A DNA stretch of 64,000 bases from a virus. Lineage: Duplodnaviria; Caudoviricetes. This document shows, piece after piece, positions 3,974-44,754 of the stretch (within the stretch, counting starts at the first letter, position 1; every line of letters begins with the position of its first letter). The stretch lies in IMG/VR virus record IMGVR_UViG_3300021431_004524, positions 171,654 through 235,653 of that record, one strand, 5' to 3'. Under the pieces are notes generated by a model. That model was not told the DNA's origin. It made no database searches and was given only the letters and a program-made list of their open reading frames with translations. A program made the position numbers and the translations under genes.

Positions 3974-6900
3974 ATGGCTAGAAACAGTGAAATATTTTTA
4001 GGCGGTGATAATAGCACGCTTATATACTTAGGAGAAGAAGAGCATAAGATTTATCTTGGCTCTGACCTTGTTTATCAACCTAAGATTAGTATCGCAAGTG
4101 CAACTGTTTCCGTCGGTTCAAAAACATATAATGGAAGTAAACAGACTGCTTCATCAATCACTGTCACCATTTCTGGCAAAACACTTACAGTAGGTGAAGA
4201 TTATCAGATAACATCTAATAGTGGTGGAACCAATGTTGGTAATTATACTGTTACAGTAACAGGTATTGGGCTTTATAAGGATGCCGCTTCTGGAACATTC
4301 ACGATTAATAAGGTAACTCCTACTGTAACAGCCCCAACAGCAAAAGTTCTGACTTATAACGGTTCAGCACAGGTTCTTGCAACCGCCGGAAGTACTAATT
4401 TTGGTACTTTAAAATACAGTCTTGATAATAGTACTTGGCAGACAGCGGTTCCTGCCGCCACAAACCAAGGCAGTTATACCTTATACTATAAGGTGGATGG
4501 TGACAGTAACATCAATAGCGTGGCTGCTAAGAGTATTACTTGTTCGATTAATGCAAAACAAGTGACAGCGACTGTCGAACTTAGTCAGACAAAATACACA
4601 TATAATGGTTCTGCTTTTAAGCCCACTGTTACGGTAAAGGATGGTAGTACGGTTATTCCGGCTTCTGAATACACGGTTACTTATAGTAATAATGTAAATG
4701 CAGGTACGGCAACAGTAACAATTAATGATAATACAGGCGGTAACTATGAGGTTATAGGTTCAGCCGACTTTACAATTAATAAAGCTGCTGGAAGTATCAG
4801 TTATGAAACTACAACCGTAAATAAAACCTATGGCAATAGTGCCTTTACTAATGCATTGACAAAAACCGGTGATGGTAGCGTAACATATTCTTCAAGTAAT
4901 ACAAATGTCGCAACAGTAAATTCTTCCGGTCAAGTGACAATTAAGGCTGCCGGTTCAGTAACTATTACGGCTACTGTTACTGACGGTACTAATTACGCAT
5001 ACGCAACAAAAACTGCAAGTTATACACTAAGTGTAGCTAAAGCGACACCTACGGTTACTGCACCTACGGCTAAAAACCTTACATATAATGGTGGTGCTCA
5101 GACGCTTATTAATGCCGGTTCTACTACTGGTGGAACTATTCAATATAAACTCGGTACAGGTAGTTATAGTACTTCTTTACCTTCTGCAACGAATAAGGGA
5201 AGTTATACAGTATACTATAAAGTTGTTGGTAATTCAAATTACAATGATGTGGCTGAAGCAAGCGTTACGGTTGAAATTAAGGCTAAGGCACTTACTATTA
5301 CAGCGAAAGACCAAACAGTTTCTTATGGTACTGCAATCACACAAGGTACCGGACAAGTTACGGTTAGTGGTTTGGTAAGTGGTGATACTTTAACTGCAAT
5401 TACGCTTACTCAGAGTACTGTTAATGTAACGACAACCGGTACAATCACACCATCTGCTGCCGCAACGACTAATGGTATCGGTAACTATAGTGTTACCTAT
5501 ACAAATGGTAAATTGACAATTACAGCCGTTGAACCAATTAAGACAGACCCTGTTAAGATAGGTAATCTTACATATAATGGCAGTGCTCAGAACCTTGTTA
5601 CGGCAGGCACAAGTAGTCATGGTACTTTTAGTTATAAATTGTCTACTGCAAGTACATATGGAAGCAGTATTCCGACCGGTACGAATGCAGGAACATATAG
5701 TGTTGATTGGAAATTCGTTGCTGATGCCAATCACGGCGGCGGAACAGTTACAGGTACTATAACAAATATTTCAATTGCACAGAAATCGCTTACTATTGCT
5801 GCTAAAAAGCAAAGCGTTGTATATGGTACTGCAATCACACAGGGTACAAACCAAGTTACCGTTACTGGTTTAGTATCAGGCGATTCATTAACTGCAATTA
5901 CGCTTACACAAAGCACGGTTAATGTGACAACAACCGGTACAATCACGCCATCTGCTGCCGCAACGACAAAGGGTATCAGTAACTATAGTGTTACTTATGA
6001 CACTGCAAATCTGACAATTACACAGAAAGCACTTACGATTACAGCAAAGGCACAGACAGTAAATTATGGTACTGCAATTACACAAGGTACAGGCCAAGTT
6101 ACTGTTACAGGTTTGGTAACCGGTGATTCATTAACTGCAATTACGCTTACACAAAGCACGGTTAATGTGACAACAACCGGTACAATCACGCCATCTGCTG
6201 CCGCAACCACAAACGGCATTAGTAACTACTCAGTAACATATAATACTGGTGTACTTACAATTAATAAGGTTTCGGCAAGTGTTACAAAAAAGCCTACTGC
6301 TAAGTCACTGACTTATAATACAGAGGCACAAGCCCTTGTAAATGCTGGTACTGCTAACGGTGGTACAATGTATTATCAGATGACCACATCTAATAGCAAA
6401 CCAACTAACACAAGCGGATTCAGTGCAACAATACCAACCGGTACGAATGCAGGAACATATTATGTATGGTATTACGTAAAAGGTGATTCTAACCATACTG
6501 ATACTGCAATAAGTGAAACTGCTGTTACTGTGACGATTAATAGTAAGGCTATTGTTATTCCTACTCCTACGGGTGTAGAGAAAACATATGATGGCACTGC
6601 TGCAAGTGCAACATTCAGTGCGGCAACAGGTGCAACAATTACTAAGTACAGATATTCAACTGATAATAGTTCATGGACTGAATCAAGTTCTAACCCAATT
6701 CAGACGAATCATGGTACTTTATACACACAAGCTTATTATACGGCTTCGGCAAACTATACTGGTAGCGGATGGTCTTCAAGTGCTACTATCTCGATTGCCA
6801 AGGCAGCTCCAACATATACCGCCCCAACTGCTAAGACAGGACTTGTTTATAGCGGTTCAGCGCAAGCATTGCTTAATGCTGGCTCGACAAGTCATGGTAC

Positions 6901-9900
6901 GATTCAATATTCATCTGATAATACCAATTGGGGTACAACTATACCAACCGGAACAAATGTCAACACATACACAAGTTATTGGCGTTTAGTTGGTGATAAT
7001 AACCATACTGATGTGTCATCTAAGAGTCTGAGCACATCAATCGGTAAGGTAACTCCTACTGTAACGGCCCCAACTGCCAAGTCACTTACTTACACGGGTT
7101 CTGCTCAGACATTGGCAAATGCCGCATCTACTAACTTCGGTACATTGCAATACTCCTTGGATGATACCAATTGGAGTACAACTATACCAACAGGAACGAA
7201 TGCCGCATCTTATACAGTATACTATCGTGTAGTCGGTAATAGTAACATCAATGACGTTGCTTCTGATAGTATTACGTGTAGTATTGGCAAGGCTGCCGGA
7301 AGTATCAGTTATGCGACTACAACCGTAGATAAAACCTATGGCAATAGTGCCTTTACTAATGCATTGACCAAGACCGGTGATGGTTCAGTTACCTATTCTT
7401 CAAGCAATACAAGTATTGCAACTGTGAATACTTCCGGTCAAGTTACAATTAAGGCCGCAGGTTCAGCAACTATTACGGCTACAGTTACTGACGGTTCTAA
7501 CTACACATACGCGACAAAGACTGCAAGCTACACATTGAATGTGGCCAAGGCTAATCTAAGTGCGTCGGTATCTATGGACGGATGGACTTATGGCGGCACT
7601 GCTAGTAGCCCATCAGTAAGTGGTAATAGTGGCGGTGGCTCAGTAACCTATTCTTATAAGGTTAGTGGGGCTGCTGACTCTACTTATACAACTACAAAGC
7701 CAAGCAATGCGGGTAATTATGTGGTACGTGCTGTTATTGCTGAAACCGCAAACTATAATGGCGCAACAGTTACCAATACATTCACTATTGCAAAGGCTAA
7801 TCCGGCATATACAGCACCAACCGCTAAGACATTAACATATAACGGTTCGGCACAAGCATTGCTTAACGCCGGTTCTACAAGTCATGGTACGATTCAGTAC
7901 TCTTCAGACAACAGTACTTGGGGTACGTCTATTCCAACTGGTACAAATGCCACATCTTACACAAGTTATTGGAGACTTGTAGGTGATAGCAACCATAAAG
8001 ATGTGTCATCTAAGAGTCTGAGCACATCAATCGGTAAGGTAACTCCTACTGTAACGGCCCCAACCGCCAAGGTTCTGACTTATAACGGTTCTGCTCAGAC
8101 ATTGGCAAATGCCGCATCTACTAACTTCGGTACATTGAAGTATAGCCTTGATAATAGTACTTGGCAGACAGCGGTTCCTTCCGCTACAAACCAAGGCAGT
8201 TATACCTTATACTATAAGGTGGACGGTGACAGTAATATCAATAGCGTGGCTGCTAAGAGTATTGCATGTTCTATCAACGAGAAAGAAGTAACGGCAACAG
8301 TTACATTAAGTCAGTCGACATATACATATAGTGGTAGTGCTTGCACGCCAACAGTTACTGTGAAAGACGGTAGTACGGTTATTCCGGCTTCTGAATACAC
8401 GGTTACTTATAGTAACAATGTAAATGCGGGTACGGCAACAGTAACAATTACCGATAATACAGGCGGTAACTACAATGTCACAGGTTCGGCAACGTTTACT
8501 ATTAACAAGGCCAATGGTAGTGTGACTATCAATGCAACTGCACCTACTTATACAGGTAATGCTCAGAGTCTTGTTACTGTAAGTGGTAATACGGGTACAG
8601 TACATTATAGAGTTGGCACAAGTGGAAGTTGGACAACTACAATTCCTACTGGAACCGGTGCCGGCAATTATACCGTATATTGGTACATGGATGCATCATC
8701 AAATTATAAGGCACTTAACAGTTCTTCAAGTCCGGCCAGTGTTGCTGTAACAATCGCCAAGGCTAATCCATCATATGAAGCCCCAACTGCTAAGACAGGA
8801 CTTGTTTATAGCGGTTCGGCACAAGCATTACTTAATGCGGGCTCGACAAGTCATGGTACGATTCAGTACTCTTCAGACAACAGTACTTGGGGTACGTCTA
8901 TTCCAACGGGCACAAATGCCACATCTTACACAAGTTATTGGAGACTTGTAGGTGATGGCAACCATAAAGATGTGTCATCTAAGAGTCTGAGCACATCAAT
9001 CGGTAAGGCATCCGGCATTGCGGGTGTTTCAAGTAGAAGTCTTTCATACACTCGCGGTGCTCAGAACCTCGTAACCGTAAGTGGTAATACGGGTACAGTA
9101 CATTATAGAGTTGGCACAAGTGGAAGTTGGACAACTACAATCCCAACTGCTACTAATGCAGCAACATATACTATATACTATTATGTAGATGCTTCTACGA
9201 ACTACAATGGTGTAGGTTCAAGTAGTAGTCCTAATAATGTAAGCACTACAATCGCTAAGGTTACTCCGGTACTTTCTACAAGTCCTTCGTTGAGAACCGG
9301 TTTGAACTATACAGGTTCTGCACAAAATCTTCTTAGTGGTGGTGCAATGAAACATAGTAGTTCCGATACCACTTCAGTCGCAGGTACATTCACTTATACT
9401 CAGAAAACCAATGCCGGAACATATACTGACCCTACTTGGTCGTTTACACCAACAGATACAACTAACTATAATTCAACAAGTGGTAAGATAACAGGCAGTG
9501 TGACAATCGCTAAGATTAACCCAACATATAATGCTCCAACCGCCAAGTCTGGACTTGTATATAACGGCGTATCTCAGACATTGTATAATGCAGGTTCTAA
9601 CACAACAGCGGGTGAGTTCTCTTATACTAGCGGTACAAGAAAGGATGCCGGCAGTCAGACTGTAAGTTGGACATTCACGCCTACCGATACCACTAACTAT
9701 AATACAAAAACCGGTTCATTTGGCGTAACAATCGGACAGAAAGAAGTAACACTAAGTTGGGGTACACTTTCTTGGACTTATGACAAGAAGGAACACTCAA
9801 CAACATGTACTGCCGGTAGTCTAATATCGGGTGATACGTGTTATGTAACTCTCACAGGTAATTCAATTACCAATGTCGGAACAGCCACTGTTACAGCATC

Positions 9901-27856: not shown

Positions 27857-28393
27857 TTAGAATGGCAAATCATCCGTATCGTCATTGCCGTCCGTTGGCG
27901 GTGCAGCAGGTGCAGGCGCGGCTGTCTTTGCCGTAATCGGTGTTGTTGTCGGATTACGTGGCGTTGTCTTCTTTGCTGTTTGTGTTGTGTTTGCAGCGGC
28001 CTGCGGTGCTTGTGGTGCTGTTGTCGTTGTGGTGTTGTTGTTGGCAGTGCCCTCGGCATTCTGCGGATTACCGAAATTATTGTCAAACATAATATCATTG
28101 GCAGTTACCTCAAGTCCTGCTTCGGGCTTATTGGTCTGTGTACTGATATACGGACTTGCTTTCAAGTCACCAATTACCTCAATGGACTTACCCTTTGTCA
28201 GATATTGGGCAAGTTTTGCATGATTTGGATTAAATGAAGTTACACGGAACCAATATGTCTCACGTCCGTTGTTCTCAGCACTACCGGTATATTCGTTATT
28301 ACCTACACGGAATTCAATAAACGGTGTACCATTCTTTGTTACTTTCTGCTCTGCATTTGCGGCCAAACGGCCTGATAGAAATAATTTTCTCAT
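27857..28393 (-). CDS. ssb: Single-stranded DNA-binding protein
   Basis: OB fold (LSGRL, WFRV, YLTKG), T/A/P-rich linker, C-terminal DDLPF. Confidence 0.9.
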   Translation of the reverse strand: MRKLFLSGRLAANAEQKVTKNGTPFIEFRVGNNEYTGSAENNGRETYWFRVTSFNPNHAKLAQYLTKGKSIEVIGDLKASPYISTQTNKPEAGLEVTANDIMFDNNFGNPQNAEGTANNNTTTTTAPQAPQAAANTTQTAKKTTPRNPTTTPITAKTAAPAPAAPPTDGNDDTDDLPF

Positions 28394-28493: not shown

Positions 28494-30158
28494 TTATTTT
28501 GTATTTAAAACACTAACTTTACTGTGATTATATACTATAATACCACCATTTGTGAATGATATGTTATAGTTATCCAATCCGGTTGTTTCGAAAGATACTA
28601 CCTCATTAAGTGTTTCCTTATCCAAGAAATGAAGTTTATCGTCATTATATAGTATGATGAATCTGTCATTGGATGAATATGGGTAAACATCGTCAATTTC
28701 CTTAGTTTTCATATCTCCGTACTTGTTGATAGTAAATAGGTAGTGTTTAACCTTATTTTTATTGTTTACGGTATATATACCGGTATTTTGGTTCTGTATT
28801 ACATCAACAATTTTCTCATTTATAATATATGAAGATAACTTATTGTTTGAATTATAGAAAATAACCGAATTTTTACCAAGTACCTCATGTAAGCCATTGA
28901 TTTTAATAAATGACTTGTGATATACGTTAGTTACGGTATATTTCACGTTATTAGCGTATATCTCGTCAAGATAGACAGTATACATCTTATCATCCTTTGT
29001 AATTACAATAAGGATATTCTCATATTGCTTGGCACAATGGACGTTTGTAAGTTGCAATGAGGTTATTTCCTCGAACTGCTTGCTTGAAGTGTTATAATGT
29101 CTTAGATGCCCATATCTGAGAGAATATATGTTCTTATCAGTCAGTATGAGGTTTTCAGACTTATCCACGACACCGTAATTCATGATAATACCTTTACCAT
29201 CTGCTGAATAAAGACGTTTCTCTGTATCTGTAATAACAGCGATATATCTGTTCGATGAAATAACGTTTTTGACATTTCCACTGAACAGTTCCTTGATAAG
29301 AAGTTCATTAGACATGACAATTGCATCGAATTTAACGGTATCGACGTGTTTGCCGTTCATGTCTATAAGGAAACGCTTATTGAGTTGATATATCTCATAG
29401 AACATGTCCTTCAGTGCAGTATCGGATATGGGGGTATAGAACTTAGGCACCTTAATATTGCCAATTTCCTTTTCATTAAGAAGTGAAATATTGTTTATCT
29501 CCCTATCTTTCAACTTATCACGATATACGTTATGAATACCCTTATATGGGTGCATACCGGTGAATAGGTTGAATATCATCACGGATAATGCAAAATAATC
29601 TGAGTTTTCACTTACAGTTCCATTGAAATAGAAGTCACGTACCTCTTCCAAAAGTTTGTCATTATGCTTATAGGATTTTGTCTGATAAGAGTCTACATCA
29701 ATGAATTTAAGGTCAAGACGGTCATTGACCATGATATTGAATGGGTTAAGGTCTCCTATTACAATACCATTGTCATGTGCATTCTTAACACCTATGATTA
29801 GTTTTTCTGCAAGTTTCCTCTTATAGTCACTTGGAAGACCTCTTTTGTTTGCAAACATAGGAGAATATAGGGAATATATTGGATAATAGTCAGAAAGATT
29901 AAGTTCTTCCATAATATAACCATTATAATCCCCACTGACCGCAATTTGAGGCTTTACAAAGAGATTTCCATCAAGGGGTGATAACTCATCAATCTTTGTC
30001 TGAGAAAGTGCGTCAGAAGCCTTAAAATAGAGTTTTGCTACAAGTCCACTACCATTTGAACCGGAGATTGGATAAATTGTACCCTCGCCACCGCTTCCAA
30101 GACTGTGGTTTTCATTAATTTGGTATCTATGGCCCTTAGTATCCTGTATATTTATCAT
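28494..30158 (-). CDS. Ser/Thr protein kinase (YegI/TerY-P-like) with C-terminal beta-rich domain
   Basis: LGSGGEG, VAKLY, IGDLNPFN, IDVDSYQ, SDYFAL, GMHPY. Confidence 0.85.
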   Translation of the reverse strand: MINIQDTKGHRYQINENHSLGSGGEGTIYPISGSNGSGLVAKLYFKASDALSQTKIDELSPLDGNLFVKPQIAVSGDYNGYIMEELNLSDYYPIYSLYSPMFANKRGLPSDYKRKLAEKLIIGVKNAHDNGIVIGDLNPFNIMVNDRLDLKFIDVDSYQTKSYKHNDKLLEEVRDFYFNGTVSENSDYFALSVMIFNLFTGMHPYKGIHNVYRDKLKDREINNISLLNEKEIGNIKVPKFYTPISDTALKDMFYEIYQLNKRFLIDMNGKHVDTVKFDAIVMSNELLIKELFSGNVKNVISSNRYIAVITDTEKRLYSADGKGIIMNYGVVDKSENLILTDKNIYSLRYGHLRHYNTSSKQFEEITSLQLTNVHCAKQYENILIVITKDDKMYTVYLDEIYANNVKYTVTNVYHKSFIKINGLHEVLGKNSVIFYNSNNKLSSYIINEKIVDVIQNQNTGIYTVNNKNKVKHYLFTINKYGDMKTKEIDDVYPYSSNDRFIILYNDDKLHFLDKETLNEVVSFETTGLDNYNISFTNGGIIVYNHSKVSVLNTK

Positions 30159-30679
30159 AGTGTTGGAAAATTATTATTTACCTCAATTGCAGTAAGCAAT
30201 ACAGCGTTATATATTGCACTAGTGATGTTTTCATCACGATTATCTGAATTGAAATTACAGTTCATTATTTTAACCACATCAGGTAATTTCAGTTTTTTGT
30301 CAGTTTTAAGTGCAATTGCTATATAGATAGTACCGGGTTCGATACCATCTACAGCATCAGGTCCTGCAAGTCCAGTAATTCCAATGGAAACATCTGTATC
30401 GAACAATTTCATAGCACCGGTTGCCATTTCCAACGCAACGTTTGCACTAACAACATTAAAATCTTCAATTGTTGAATGCTTCACGCCAAGAAGTTTTTCT
30501 TTTGCTTCCGTCGCATATGTGATAACGCCACCGACTAAATATTTTGATGCACCAGGTACTGATGAAATCCTATTGGCAATTCCACCGGCGGTACAACTCT
30601 CTGCCGTAGCAATTGTCAACTTCTTTTCTGTTAATAACTTGGCAAGTGTTTCTTGCGGTCTGTTAAAATCAATATTCAT
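30155..30679 (-). CDS. pncC: CinA C-terminal domain / NMN deamidase
   Basis: ATAESCTAG, VPGAS, VVSANVALEMA, GITGLAGP. Confidence 0.88.
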   Translation of the reverse strand: MNIDFNRPQETLAKLLTEKKLTIATAESCTAGGIANRISSVPGASKYLVGGVITYATEAKEKLLGVKHSTIEDFNVVSANVALEMATGAMKLFDTDVSIGITGLAGPDAVDGIEPGTIYIAIALKTDKKLKLPDVVKIMNCNFNSDNRDENITSAIYNAVLLTAIEVNNNFPTL

Positions 30680-31749
30680 AATTTTATACCGTGCTTTTTA
30701 AGTTGCTTAATAACATCTTCAACGGTAATTAATGTAATGTTTTCCTTTTCGTCAAACTTAATACCGTACTTGTTTTCCAAATCCATCATTAAGCCGACAG
30801 TATCGAGACTATCGAACCATAAATCATTTACCAATGAACTTGAACGTCTGATGGGATACTTTTTATCGACATATTTCTTGAAAATATCTTCGAGTTCTGC
30901 CGGTACCGCCTCATCTGGTCGTACAGCATCGATGTCAAGGATTTTATCCAACGCTAAGAATCTCTCTTTACCTTCCTTACCCATAATTGGGAATGCGGGG
31001 TGAATATTCCATACGGTTCTATCATACTCAGTGTTAAGTTTTTCATTGAAATAATGCTCTTTTTCCCTATAGACAAATCTTCCGTACTTCTTACCGTCAT
31101 CATAGGTATTCCAATCGATACCCTTTTCGTCAAGAAGCAATTTAATTTGTTCATCGCTATCAAGTCCTTCCAACTGCTTATGCGAAAGCCATGTCTGTGC
31201 TGTCTGTTGCTTTGAATTACGAATACAATCTATTTGTCTCCACAGATAATAACTATATACATCATTGAAATTATCGACTGACCACGCCTTGCAATCAAAT
31301 TCAGCAAGTTTAAGGTCAAGAATCATCTGTTTCAAATCAGCATTTGAACAAGGTGTATCACAAAGGTCTGCAATTACCAATTGATTGAATTTTGCCGTTG
31401 CCATAGAAGGCACAATAGACAGAATCTTGGTAAGTCTGTTACCGAAAAACGAACAAGTTGTCTCATTGTCAAAATCAGTCAAGACAAACGTTATTTCATC
31501 ACTCTGTACATATGCGAATTTACAACCTTCTACATATCGGCAAACATATTTTGCAACCTCATTCATTATATTGATGAACTTATCATCAAACGGTTTTTCA
31601 TACTTGTTCTTGATAAGGCGCGAGAAGCAATGGCCGTCAATTGCTATCATTGTATACCCTTTTAACGGTAGTCTTAAATCGGTTTTTGCTCTTAATTCAG
31701 TCATTCTCTGTTTGAGAGACTTTTCCGTTGAATCCATCTTCTTTTCCAT
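30676..31749 (-). CDS. Thg1-like tRNA(His) guanylyltransferase (3'-5' polymerase) fused to a C-terminal acyl carrier protein domain
   Basis: IDGHCFS, YVQSDEI, FDCK, WRQIDCIRNS; ACP-like LWFDSLDTVGLMMDLENKYGIKF...TVEDVI. Confidence 0.85.
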   Translation of the reverse strand: MEKKMDSTEKSLKQRMTELRAKTDLRLPLKGYTMIAIDGHCFSRLIKNKYEKPFDDKFINIMNEVAKYVCRYVEGCKFAYVQSDEITFVLTDFDNETTCSFFGNRLTKILSIVPSMATAKFNQLVIADLCDTPCSNADLKQMILDLKLAEFDCKAWSVDNFNDVYSYYLWRQIDCIRNSKQQTAQTWLSHKQLEGLDSDEQIKLLLDEKGIDWNTYDDGKKYGRFVYREKEHYFNEKLNTEYDRTVWNIHPAFPIMGKEGKERFLALDKILDIDAVRPDEAVPAELEDIFKKYVDKKYPIRRSSSLVNDLWFDSLDTVGLMMDLENKYGIKFDEKENITLITVEDVIKQLKKHGIKL

Positions 31750-31882: not shown

Positions 31883-32260
31883 TTAATCATTATTCTTTAT
31901 TTCTATTAACACAAATTTATCACATAATTTCTCATAATATTTCACTGCCTCTTCATATGTGCCAAAATATTCTACATCATACTCGCCATCGATGTAGTGA
32001 ATGAGCACTCTTGGCGCATGGAACACCTTTCCATCCTCAATGATGTTTCCTTTTTCGATTAATTCCTTGGCCGTGAATGTTATTACGAAATCATCACCCA
32101 TATAGATGTCATCCTCATAGTATTTCTTCTTAAACCAGCCACTATAGTAAACCTCGCCTTTTTTATGGACTAATGAGAAATTCCACTCGTTTAGTTTTTT
32201 GTCGAATACTTCAAGTTTCTTAATCGAACTGAAATTAATTGATTTCCTTTCTTCTTTCAT
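31883..32260 (-). CDS. Hypothetical
   Basis: ORF within operon. Confidence 0.65.
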   Translation of the reverse strand: MKEERKSINFSSIKKLEVFDKKLNEWNFSLVHKKGEVYYSGWFKKKYYEDDIYMGDDFVITFTAKELIEKGNIIEDGKVFHAPRVLIHYIDGEYDVEYFGTYEEAVKYYEKLCDKFVLIEIKNND

Positions 32261-32262
32261 GA

Positions 32263-32670
32263 CTAATTTTGACCTAATAATGTTGGGTTAAATACTATAA
32301 TGTAGAATGTTATCAAAATCTGAATAATGTGGATAAGTTGGTCTGTCCAAAGGTTAATCTTAAATCTGTTTGCCTTGAGGTCATCCACATATGCATGAAC
32401 ACCTGCATTAATAATGAAGAATTTGATAAGTAGCCAATTAGGAACATCCATCAAGAACATTGGCGGAATCAATATCATAATTGACCATGTGAAACCATGC
32501 ATCAATAAGGCACTGATATAGTCACCTTGATAATTTTTGAAATCGACATTGTTTTTCTTACATTCCTCTACCCACCATGACTTACATTTCAGTTGAGAAA
32601 GACAAATTGGCTGGAGTACAAAGTCACATATAAGATGCATCCAACCCATTAATAAAATTGTTTTCACCAT
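32263..32670 (-). CDS. DUF3307-like membrane protein
   Basis: HLICDFVLQ, HAYVD, DQLIH; start moved downstream of the promoter at 32692-32723. Confidence 0.7.
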   Translation of the reverse strand: MVKTILLMGWMHLICDFVLQPICLSQLKCKSWWVEECKKNNVDFKNYQGDYISALLMHGFTWSIMILIPPMFLMDVPNWLLIKFFIINAGVHAYVDDLKANRFKINLWTDQLIHIIQILITFYIIVFNPTLLGQN

Positions 32671-32742
32671 ACTTTTTTCATCTTTATAGTGCAAAGTTAC
32701 TAAAAATTCGCGATAAAAACAAATATTTTATCTTAAACTTTG

Positions 32743-42179: not shown

Positions 42180-43979
42180 TTATGCCTCATCAGTTGTATC
42201 ACCATAACCCTCAGCAGCCTCAATATCAACAGCTCCGGAATCATAGACAAGGGCTTCTTTAAGTGTAAAACTTACACTCTTTAATTTCTCAGCACGAAGT
42301 ACAGTATCACCGGCTTTACGAAGAACAAATCCTTCTCTTGGTGAATCCGGGAAGTTCTTACAGAGTGGTTCCGGTTCCTCCATGCCAAAATGTTCCTTAT
42401 CGTTCTTCATACGTTCCAACAAAGCCTCATGCCAATGGTTCTCAGTGTCCAAATCGGGATAAAGTTCTTCAAGAGTACCGTGATAAAGTATATCGATTGG
42501 GTGGATACGCTTCCAATTATCATTACCTTCTGCTTTCATCCTTTCAATTAACTTGTTAGTCCAATCAAGAACCTCAGATACCTCCCACTCTTTCTTAGTT
42601 CCATCTTCATTAGTAGTTGTAATACGATAGAACATGACAATATTCTCACCTTCAGGGCATCCATAATCGTAAGCCTTCTGAATCATTGATTGTTCACCAG
42701 TAAGATAGCCACAGATTTCACCATATACTGTCATACCTTCATCAAGATATGGATAGATAATATCACCATACTCAGTCCACAAGTCAGCATTATAGTAACC
42801 ACCAGTTACATCTTGATTGATGTATTTATTCTTAATTACCTTACGTGAAGCATATACAGGGCCATATACGACCTCACTATCAGTAATTCTAAGTGATTTG
42901 AACAGATGTGTGAAATCAACAAACTTGTTAAACGTTCTCTTGAAGAACGGAAGTTTAATTGGTTGATTTACATGAAGTTTGCCAATGATACAACTTGTTC
43001 CGTGTAGTTTAACACTAATATCTACAATATCATCCGGTTTGAAATACTGAATATCTTTATTCAACTGGCTTGTGCTGTAGTGGAAGAAGAATTCGCCATC
43101 AATCATGCGGTCAAATCTCTTAATTGTTTTCTGTGCCTTATTCTTATTACTCTTCTTCTGAGTTTCCGCCGGCATAGGTGGAATATATACCTTAACGAAC
43201 AAATCACCGTTTACAGTGTCGAACTCTTGGCCAACGTATGCTTCAATATCTTCCATCGTAATAGATGAGTCATATTTAATCAAATCCTCTGGTGCAAACA
43301 AAACACCAAATGAAGGGGTATTTCTAAGAGTAAGACAACGAACGCGGCCATACTTGTTGAAGAAGCCACAATGTTTCTTAACCTCTGCAATAATGTCAGC
43401 ACCAGACTTAACAATATCCTCTACTTCTTTCTTCAAGTTGGTATAGGTTGTGGTCTTTGCGATTGCACGTGCTGTATAATCGTCAGCCTGCTTCTGCAAA
43501 GTATCAATTTCAGCCTTCTTGATACCGTACTCTTCAGATGAACTATCAAGAGACTCAAGGTCTTTTGTCATCTTCTTAATCTGTTTGTTAATCTTAGCAG
43601 CCTTCTTGGTGAGATTATCCATTGAAGCCTTTACGTTCTTTGCCTCATTACGGATAGCATCAGCCTTTGCCTTGATTGGTTCATAAGGCTTATAGATTTC
43701 ATCAACTTCTTCCTTATTGGCATTCTTCTCACGGCAACTAATCTCATAAAGGTTATTAACGGAAAGGAATTTCTCATTAAGTTGCGTCTCATTAGCGGCA
43801 TATATCATAATGTCGCCTTCCTTTACTTGGTCTTTACGTACCACAATCTGTGTACCAAACACATCTGTTTTAGCAAGGAAATCAGAACCCTCAATTGGGG
43901 TAAGTTCACCAACACGTACAATAGCGGCACTATATTCACTATTGAATGCTTCACTTTTAGTAAATACGTTTTTTTCCAT
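42180..43979 (-). CDS. RNA ligase (Rnl2/DRB0094-like) with a coiled-coil insertion
   Basis: TPIEGSD N-domain, KLHGTS, YGEICG, REGFVLR, KLKS. Confidence 0.8.
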   Translation of the reverse strand: MEKNVFTKSEAFNSEYSAAIVRVGELTPIEGSDFLAKTDVFGTQIVVRKDQVKEGDIMIYAANETQLNEKFLSVNNLYEISCREKNANKEEVDEIYKPYEPIKAKADAIRNEAKNVKASMDNLTKKAAKINKQIKKMTKDLESLDSSSEEYGIKKAEIDTLQKQADDYTARAIAKTTTYTNLKKEVEDIVKSGADIIAEVKKHCGFFNKYGRVRCLTLRNTPSFGVLFAPEDLIKYDSSITMEDIEAYVGQEFDTVNGDLFVKVYIPPMPAETQKKSNKNKAQKTIKRFDRMIDGEFFFHYSTSQLNKDIQYFKPDDIVDISVKLHGTSCIIGKLHVNQPIKLPFFKRTFNKFVDFTHLFKSLRITDSEVVYGPVYASRKVIKNKYINQDVTGGYYNADLWTEYGDIIYPYLDEGMTVYGEICGYLTGEQSMIQKAYDYGCPEGENIVMFYRITTTNEDGTKKEWEVSEVLDWTNKLIERMKAEGNDNWKRIHPIDILYHGTLEELYPDLDTENHWHEALLERMKNDKEHFGMEEPEPLCKNFPDSPREGFVLRKAGDTVLRAEKLKSVSFTLKEALVYDSGAVDIEAAEGYGDTTDEA

Positions 43980-44073: not shown

Positions 44074-44754
44074 TCATTCTAATAATTTGCATTCTTCAGG
44101 TGTATACTTTTCATGCAGTTTATCCATCCACCATTTAGTCTTAAACTTTACTTTTGGTAATCTCTGACCTTTCATAAGCGTTGTTCTTCTACATACAACT
44201 CCTTCTTTTACATTTGGATATTTACAGTCAGGTTGCGTCCAATCATTATCTTGTATTGATTTGATGAAATCCTTTGTCAGTTTACCTCTATATATTAATT
44301 CAGGTTGAATAATCTCCTTATGAGAATAGAATAGTTCCTGTAACGGTTTTAATTCAATAAAGCCTTTCTTCTTGATAAAGACATCAATTAATGCAAGTTT
44401 CAATTCATCTCCTGGTACATGAACACCCGCAAATGAATTTTCACCATACCATTCAAAATAGAACGTCACTTCATCAACGCCTGTAAATAGTCCTTTCTTC
44501 TTTGAGTTATCAGTTACAATCTGAGATAGCAATTGTGGGTAACAAGAGTTCTTGAACCATTTAACAGCATCGCCAAACTGTTCATCGGTCTCATCAAAGA
44601 CACGTTTTCTTGAACCGAATTGGTCGAATTTCTTTGTCTTTGGTGAATACTTTATACAAATGTTCTGCCCGTCTAACTTGTTATAGGCTGCAACCTCTTC
44701 ACCTAATAACGTACCGTCATCTTGTATACGGTTTATTGTGTCGTAATGTCTCAT
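44074..44754 (-). CDS. Second, minimal RNA ligase-like nucleotidyltransferase
   Basis: KLDGQN, FEWYG, LIDV, EGVVCR, KFK. Confidence 0.7.
   Translation of the reverse strand: MRHYDTINRIQDDGTLLGEEVAAYNKLDGQNICIKYSPKTKKFDQFGSRKRVFDETDEQFGDAVKWFKNSCYPQLLSQIVTDNSKKKGLFTGVDEVTFYFEWYGENSFAGVHVPGDELKLALIDVFIKKKGFIELKPLQELFYSHKEIIQPELIYRGKLTKDFIKSIQDNDWTQPDCKYPNVKEGVVCRRTTLMKGQRLPKVKFKTKWWMDKLHEKYTPEECKLLE

Follow-up and report, generated by a model that had tools for sequence, protein, structure and literature searches.

The stretch considered here, 64,000 nt of a Caudoviricetes phage (positions 171,654 to 235,653 of the IMG/VR record IMGVR_UViG_3300021431_004524; the whole of it is called the window below), contains a gene at 30676–31749 on the minus strand in which a Thg1-like protein (TLP) continues into an acyl carrier protein (ACP). 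Thg1-like enzymes are, to our knowledge, the only known 3'-5' polymerases, and ACP is a hub protein with dozens of partners. The locus therefore raises two questions, namely whether such a fusion is a genuine protein and what a carrier domain could do on an RNA enzyme. To the first we answer with high confidence that the two-domain protein is real and under selection, and that its carrier, captured once, is an accessory which passes between genomes as a module. The answer to the second is more tentative and is developed after the evidence on the gene, its relatives and its genomic setting.

One reading frame with two recognisable domains

The gene is a single open reading frame (ORF) of 357 codons followed by a TGA stop. 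Read from 31749 to 30676 on the minus strand, which also holds all the parts listed below, its frame is unbroken, with neither a stop nor a frame change at the domain junction. The catalytic and C-terminal domains of the TLP occupy residues ~10–265 (30955–31722), as delimited by Pfam, PHROG, 4KGK and Foldseek matches. They are followed by a linker (residues 266–282; 30904–30954), set by the alignment of relatives, and by an AcpP-type carrier domain (residues 283–357; 30679–30903), set by a profile comparison with ACPs of the PDB, by NCBIfam and phrog_5934 and by fold matches. The AlphaFold2 model of the whole protein has a mean predicted local distance difference test score (pLDDT) of 91.2 and a predicted template modelling score of 0.78, and no segment falls below a pLDDT of 50. 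The linker (pLDDT 75–88) is short and conserved, with the consensus IPDID-x2-RPDE-x-VP and the version ILDIDAVRPDEAV in the window, and the model contains no disordered tether.

The N-terminal part was matched by Pfam Thg1 (PF04446) over residues 23–157 (E = 1.1e-24; 87.3 bits against a cut-off of 29.2) and by PHROG 4717, 'tRNA-His guanylyltransferase', over residues 10–252 (E = 2.8e-53). Among proteins of solved structure it is matched best by the Bacillus thuringiensis Thg1-like protein (BtTLP; 4KGK, E = 7.9e-32 over residues 13–265), and matches to eukaryotic Thg1 were far weaker (4.4e-11 for the Candida protein and 2.5e-8 for that of yeast). The fold predicted by AlphaFold2 is the polymerase-palm-like fold of Thg1, with a Foldseek E-value of 2e-21 and a template modelling (TM) score of 0.90 to 4KGM. 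On sequence grounds, the N-terminal 265 residues are classified as a bacterial-type TLP rather than as a eukaryotic, tRNA-His-specific Thg1. Residues D38, S83, D84 and E85 are invariant in an alignment of 20 relatives. The predicted active-site carboxylates D38 (codon 31636–31638), D84 and E85 (codons 31495–31500) align with D29, D76 and E77 of the human protein and with D30, D75 and E76 of BtTLP, which bind two metals (PMC3701042). In BtTLP the incoming GTP is held during the transfer step by R28, the equivalent of R27 in yeast (PMC3701042). This expected nucleotide-binding arginine is absent from the phage protein, where the aligned residue is Ala36 (codon 31642–31644); the position is A, M, C or S, and never Arg, in all 20 aligned relatives, fused and unfused. 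It was also observed, in a HMMER alignment, that Arg20 is invariant in the Lak-like phage TLP clade, at a position where BtTLP has Glu12; as a relocated arginine, it might substitute for the one that was lost.

For the C-terminal part, Pfam PP-binding (PF00550) scored 18.6 bits on window residues 275–357 alone, under its cut-off of 20.8, which explains why a first Pfam scan returned a mere weak ACP match. The same model was found in all 13 fused relatives (best E = 3.3e-7). Two NCBIfam AcpP models match the window domain with E-values of 1.5e-13 and 1.6e-12, at scores under their equivalog cut-offs (47–50 against 70–71 bits; 47.1 against 70.45 for TIGR00517), and the phage ACP family phrog_5934 matches it with an E-value of 9e-9. 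A profile built from 13 fused domains aligned end to end with solved type-II ACPs (E = 6.7e-15), the serine of the DSLD motif being in register. The carrier part of the model resembles AcpP and holo-ACP chains (Foldseek TM score of 0.73–0.75, normalised to the target; root-mean-square deviation of 1.9–2.6 Å). Ser314 (AGT, 30808–30810) is the predicted 4'-phosphopantetheine attachment site within the motif D313-S314-L315-D316, and a helix begins at this residue in the model. It is invariant in 13 of 13 fused domains and the flanking Asp is invariant or nearly so. Conservation is highest at D-S-x-D and in helix II, as in true ACPs, and the domains are otherwise 37–57% identical. Homology is secure here: the C-terminal 75 residues are a derivative of AcpP, the carrier protein of fatty acid synthesis.

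This layout bears out what a first-pass annotation of the window had proposed. The ORF and the domain matches agree on a complete Thg1-family domain that runs in frame, through a short linker, into an ACP of ~75 residues; the position suggested for the ACP (about 30676–30895) lies within a few codons of the fold boundaries; and the serine of the DSL motif, which had been described as intact, is Ser314, aligned with the modified serine of solved ACPs.

Spread, origin and exchange of the carrier domain

A search of 5.8 billion clustered proteins identified at least 14 full-length fused clusters at the 90% identity level (342–360 aa, with 62–95% identity and 95–100% coverage to the window protein). 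Six of these were opened and contained 55 member sequences originating from JGI, ENA, Logan and NCBI. The exact window protein is also encoded on a contig of 391,794 bp and fused relatives are found on contigs of 387–400 kb, sizes with which the window's own record (G000; 235 kb, estimated to be 60% complete) is consistent. With a genome of ~390 kb, the phage is a megaphage of the gut, related to the Lak phages. The frame is kept in all eight loci with DNA (the window, L004, L005, L007 and L016–L019), and in the alignment of relatives no internal start codon is conserved ahead of the ACP part. One relative, L022, had been called as two overlapping ORFs, with an apparently separate ACP gene of 102 aa (P0123). 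This could have been taken as a sign that two genes were fused elsewhere by an assembly or sequencing error; however, the frame break in L022 coincides with a run of N inside the scaffold and was rejected as a genuine split. Since independent assemblies, drawn from four sources, repeat the unbroken frame at 62–95% identity and lack a conserved internal start, the probability of an artefact is practically nil, and this explanation is already refuted by the relatives.

The fusion is thus not a singleton, occurring as it does in at least 14 clusters on dozens of contigs from independent assemblies, and no genuine stop separates the two domains in the relatives. The view that it had not been described also holds for the searchable literature: no paper joining 'Thg1' with 'acyl carrier protein' was found, and a review of jumbo phages presents Thg1 as a sporadic RNA-repair gene and leaves ACP unmentioned (PMC7824862). 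In the automatic annotation at IMG, 'acyl carrier protein' is the name given to several of the fused proteins, and 'tRNA(His) 5'-end guanylyltransferase' that given to one fragment; annotation pipelines had recognised one domain of the fusion or the other.

Most relatives are unfused proteins of ~270 aa. Those of Lak megaphages (Prevotella) are 50% identical over residues 10–270. A homologue was found in 155 phage records, in each of which it spans at most 80% of the query and leaves out the ACP part. A tree built from the Thg1 part places every one of the 14 fused proteins in a single clade of 25 rows (SH-like approximate likelihood ratio test, SH-aLRT, 100), which also contains four proteins with a damaged carrier and a few unfused ones. 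At least six state changes are required on this tree, which is consistent with a single gain and subsequent losses. The carrier was thus captured once, and the fused forms all belong to one clade of Lak-related, Prevotella-type megaphages, other members of which have unfused TLPs of ~270 aa. Unfused relatives stop just after the IPDID motif, at the point where the fused ones continue with RPDE-x-VP and then with the ACP; the addition of the carrier thus took place at the enzyme's natural C-terminus. Other C-terminal extensions, 40–110 residues long and without a Pfam match, were observed in P0037 (388 aa), P0070 (323 aa) and P0019 (311 aa), and phage TLPs seem in general to accept additional modules at their C-terminus.

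A chance fusion of neighbouring genes had also been considered in the first-pass annotation, and this suggestion did not survive. In the unfused locus L003, the gene directly downstream of the TLP gene encodes a single-stranded DNA-binding protein (SSB), not an ACP; no PP-binding domain was found anywhere in the complete 550-kb genome of Lak-B2; and the carrier is under strong purifying selection, as detailed below. The donor of the carrier was sought among 1.84 billion representatives by an exhaustive profile search, which detected no close stand-alone relative. This search and another among short proteins returned just fragments of the fusion (P0122, P0123 and P0308), the next matches being generic ACPs of ~35% identity.

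The carrier was not always retained. In-frame deletions occurred in at least three close lineages among the fused relatives: P0004 and P0005 (87–90% identical to the window protein) lack 20 residues, including the serine, and have shortened tails; in P0018 the carrier is reduced to its last helix; and P0017 ends with an unrelated tail, an ACP being present in no frame. These deletions in close lineages, together with a wider family that is mostly unfused, indicate that the carrier is an accessory and not a catalytic necessity. They would also suit a passenger, that is, a fragment of AcpP caught by chance, folded and tolerated (because of an effect on solubility or oligomer spacing, for example), with no specific role and in the course of being slowly lost. 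The lower acidity of the window allele, its missing helix II Glu and the failure to find companion enzymes (see below) go in the same direction.

The pattern of substitution points the other way. Pairwise Nei-Gojobori dN/dS values (nonsynonymous to synonymous rates) were largely saturated, and a Goldman-Yang codon model was fitted to the eight loci in their place. The fitted omega was 0.057 in the Thg1 part; in the ACP part it was 0.068, and omega = 1 was rejected there (2dlnL, twice the log-likelihood difference, = 167). The carrier domain is under strong purifying selection. Against the passenger explanation stand this departure of the ACP part from neutrality (omega of 0.07 when rounded), the attachment serine and flanking Asp being the best conserved positions of an otherwise divergent domain, the total absence of frameshifts and stops in the eight loci and in ~55 cluster members, and the maintenance of the domain through recombination, as a cassette, in place of erosion. 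We consider it rather improbable that the carrier is a passenger.

The recombination is apparent from the DNA. Window and L016 are 93–100% identical upstream of the gene, in codons 1–257 and in the adjoining CinA gene, whereas identity drops to 53–68% from about nt 770 of the gene to its end. The situation is reversed between L016 and L017, where the cassette part is alike (88–95%) and the flanks differ, and the codon trees of the TLP part and of the ACP part disagree. The carrier is exchanged between genomes as a cassette, which consists of the last TLP helix, the linker and the ACP domain (30676–30980, minus strand). Two carrier alleles, ~52% identical in protein, thereby stand on near-identical backbones, and that of the window is the less ACP-like of the two.

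Fast turnover of alleles could betray an ACP mimic or decoy in phage–host conflict, which would tie up an ACP-reading host factor (candidates being a toxin, a defence sensor or an ACP-binding enzyme of the stringent response) or would itself be the target that the host recognises. Alleles of ~52% identity within genes otherwise 93–100% identical in DNA would fit such a conflict, and so would the repeated loss of the domain, its location in a variable, early-type region beside a CinA-family gene and a protein kinase gene, and the Tad2-like and Sequestin genes that relatives have a few kb away. General knowledge also offers a possible target: SpoT of E. coli binds holo-ACP via its TGS domain, and it is with a domain of this kind that RelA reads the 3' end of tRNA. 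However, no defence system or toxin directed at ACP is known to us or came to light here; nor would a decoy have to be fused to a tRNA enzyme; selection within each allele is purifying, not diversifying; and the allele pattern could equally be the product of ordinary mosaic recombination among megaphages. A decoy is therefore regarded as unlikely.

tRNA repair and the possible role of the carrier

The phage record contains ~23 tRNA genes, several of them with introns, a tmRNA gene and two RNA-ligase (PF09414) genes, one in the window (44161–44697, minus strand) and one inside the tRNA array (G000:C1:138748–139233). The tRNA array, the tmRNA and the two RNA ligases make a role of the Thg1-like domain in tRNA repair plausible. 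RtcB and a CCA-adding enzyme were not found in the 235-kb record. A 599-aa protein with a PHA02142-type OB domain (42180–43979, minus strand) was noted next to the RNA ligase of the window. The tRNA-His gene of the phage (G000:C1:136965–137039, ~34.6 kb before the window start) encodes G-1, opposite C73, as well as CCA; since G-1 is already encoded, its addition is not obviously needed. This tRNA, which has an A3xC70 mismatch in its acceptor stem, with four C on the 3' side, might serve the TLP as a substrate for template-dependent 5' repair. Among the 23 predicted tRNAs, a mismatch in the acceptor stem is confined to this one, and general 5' editing of phage tRNAs was rejected on that basis.

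Enzymes that might serve the carrier were searched for as well. In the 235-kb record, no ACPS or other phosphopantetheinyl transferase, no second PP-binding domain, no AMP-binding (adenylating) enzyme and no acyl-ACP enzyme was found, and an ACPS-family gene was found neither in the record of L007 nor in Lak-B2. With no such gene found in the phages, a host enzyme would be needed for phosphopantetheinylation. Because no acyl-ACP enzyme accompanies it, the domain is probably not an acyl carrier for a pathway.

These results also bear on whether the carrier might take part in RNA chemistry, with the pantetheine thiol holding an acyl, aminoacyl or activated intermediate that the Thg1-like site would transfer to or from an RNA 5' end. 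The invariant attachment serine would be accounted for, and so would the short, conserved linker with no disordered tether in the model and the loss of the usual GTP-binding Arg in the phage clade; moreover, adenylylated 5'-phosphate intermediates are formed by Thg1-family enzymes (PMC3701042; PMC4820378). However, the loss of the Arg is common to unfused relatives and hence is not tied to the carrier, neither a loading enzyme (adenylating enzyme or acyltransferase) nor a transferase was found in the 235-kb record, and lineages in which the carrier was deleted keep an intact enzyme. Such chemistry is very unlikely.

We favour, with doubt slightly outweighing belief, a division of labour in which the TLP would repair tRNA 5' ends and the carrier, primed by host AcpS, would be a docking or regulatory module whose partner varies by lineage. 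The Thg1-like enzyme would repair or complete tRNA 5' ends during infection, the carrier domain standing outside its catalytic chemistry. Granted a docking module, we lean towards Ser314 being primed with phosphopantetheine, most likely by host AcpS, because the phage DNA examined contains no transferase. The carrier would act as a tethered module via its conserved helix II face, where ACPs bind partners, and would link the repair enzyme to a partner, of host or phage origin, which is not the same in all lineages. The first-pass annotation had proposed coupling to host acyl status, recruitment of ACP-binding partners or a decoy. As between a catalytic role and an interaction module that can be lost and exchanged, the data favour the latter.

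Several observations weigh against this proposal. Recurrent deletion shows that the phage can do without the carrier domain. The net charge of the window allele is −1 (−1 to −11 in the family, as compared with a median of −11 for 22 stand-alone ACPs) and Gly takes the helix II position of the conserved Glu; the lost acidity and this replacement could make the domain harder to recognise for AcpS and for the classical partners of ACP. With Ala36 as the equivalent of Arg28, the chemistry of the TLP may differ from that of the TLPs studied so far. The 235-kb record represents ~60% of the phage genome, and a transferase or a partner could lie in the rest. Finally, both the modification of Ser314 and the binding of a partner are predicted steps.

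In a bolder form of the docking proposal, which we hold to be quite unlikely, the host-primed carrier would tie tRNA repair to the state of the coenzyme A (CoA) and acyl-ACP pools, or would deliver the enzyme to an ACP reader such as a stringent-response enzyme. If true, there would be a direct physical link from lipid and CoA metabolism to tRNA integrity, exploited by a phage with alleles matched to particular hosts; a still more radical version would place the pantetheine arm in new chemistry at RNA 5' ends. Should the carrier turn out to be a mere adaptor, it would be a modest addition to the oddities of megaphages, while a link between tRNA repair and the ACP biology of the host would be of high interest. 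The carrier domain could be used as bait to determine what the phage tRNA-repair enzyme couples to, and nature has already supplied the variants for a genetic experiment, in the form of two divergent alleles, deletions of three kinds and the unfused cousins.

Neighbouring genes and comparison with known systems

The ancestral downstream neighbour of the TLP gene is that of SSB (27857–28393, minus strand, in the window; phrog_44, E = 1e-14), which follows it directly in the unfused L003 and, among the fused loci, in the more distant L004, L007 and L019. Between the two, nearer relatives have acquired genes for a CinA-family protein and a protein kinase as well as a 40-aa ORF. These insertions are found with and without the ACP and so are not obligate ACP partners. 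In the window, the start codon of the CinA/PncC-family gene (30155–30679, minus strand; Pfam CinA, E = 1e-43) overlaps the stop codon of the fusion as ATGA, an arrangement indicative of translational coupling; the gene is present in nearer relatives only and is absent from L004, L007 and L019. It is followed by the protein-kinase-like gene (554 aa; 28494–30158, minus strand; Pfam Pkinase, E = 5e-9), which has the same place in L002 and L017. The kinase is encoded by one ORF in the window and in L017 and is split in L005 and L016 (~255–260 plus 290–300 aa).

The 40-aa ORF (KKLRREII..LLRNEYYVGSSEA..VWDD) is highly conserved and lies between the TLP gene and the CinA gene in five relatives (L002, 6946–7068; L005, 7068–7190; L016, 6091–6213; L017, 1974–2096; L018, 6059–6181). 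It was found neither in the window nor in the whole 235-kb record, and its loss coincided with the cassette exchange at the ACP. The ORF was rejected as a candidate ACP partner, given that it tracks CinA, not ACP, and is absent from the window's genome.

Other features of the region were recorded. Tad2-like and Sequestin (anti-defence sponge) genes lie ~5–6 kb from the TLP gene in relatives (L005, 12952–13065; L004, 12386–12616) and suggest a region rich in counter-defence genes. In L018, a gene for a 497-aa DUF723/DUF4379 protein (6727–8220, minus strand), on the strand opposite to its neighbours, is inserted between the CinA and kinase genes and resembles a mobile insertion of the endonuclease type. 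Just upstream of the fusion, the window encodes a 125-aa protein with no family assigned (31883–32260, minus strand) and a DUF3307 membrane protein (32263–32694, minus strand). ORFs of similar size occupy both positions in L007, L016 and L017; a faint match in L016 is the sole DUF3307 match at this place in the relatives, and the L007 protein resembles that of the window by eye.

That Thg1 occurs in jumbo phages, within RNA repair, has been noted before (PMC7824862). What the present gene adds to this known repair enzyme is a previously undescribed carrier-protein appendage that is conserved and selected. In sequence and fold it is closest to BtTLP (4KGK/4KGM) and to the other bacterial and archaeal TLPs that repair 5'-truncated tRNAs, and it shares with BtTLP the three carboxylates and the adjoining Ser. 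Unlike BtTLP, it is encoded by a phage, its activity is a predicted one, it has ~90 additional C-terminal residues that form the ACP domain, and the equivalent of Arg28 is A, M, C or S throughout its clade. Unfused phage TLPs, such as those of Lak phages, gp378 of Bacillus phage G and those of BCP78-like Bacillus phages (PHROG 4717), belong to the same family and are without the ACP part.

For the carrier, the nearest comparison is with ACPs of type-II fatty acid synthesis (E. coli 1ACP; Plasmodium 2FQ0 and 3GZL), with which it shares a full-length alignment, the DSLD serine, helix II and a four-helix fold superposable at ~2 Å. It differs from them in being far less acidic, with Lys-Lys for Glu-Glu after helix II, and in its fusion to an RNA enzyme with no fatty-acid enzymes nearby. 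The carrier also matches the family of stand-alone phage ACPs (phrog_5934), for which no role has been assigned. These are separate small genes in unrelated contexts, beside a fatty acid desaturase gene, RegA with clamp loader genes or UvrD; no tRNA link was found among their neighbours in L010, L013 and L015, and none of them is a close relative or a plausible donor of the carrier. As regards its possible role, the carrier may be compared with the mitochondrial ACP of complex I and with AcpM bound to MmpL5 or to EmbA-EmbB, chains of this type being among the fold matches of the carrier model. In those complexes an ACP is not the carrier of a pathway but is bound as an accessory subunit. The likeness is an analogy of role only: their ACPs are separate subunits with partners unrelated to Thg1, whereas the phage carrier is part of the same polypeptide as the enzyme it would serve.

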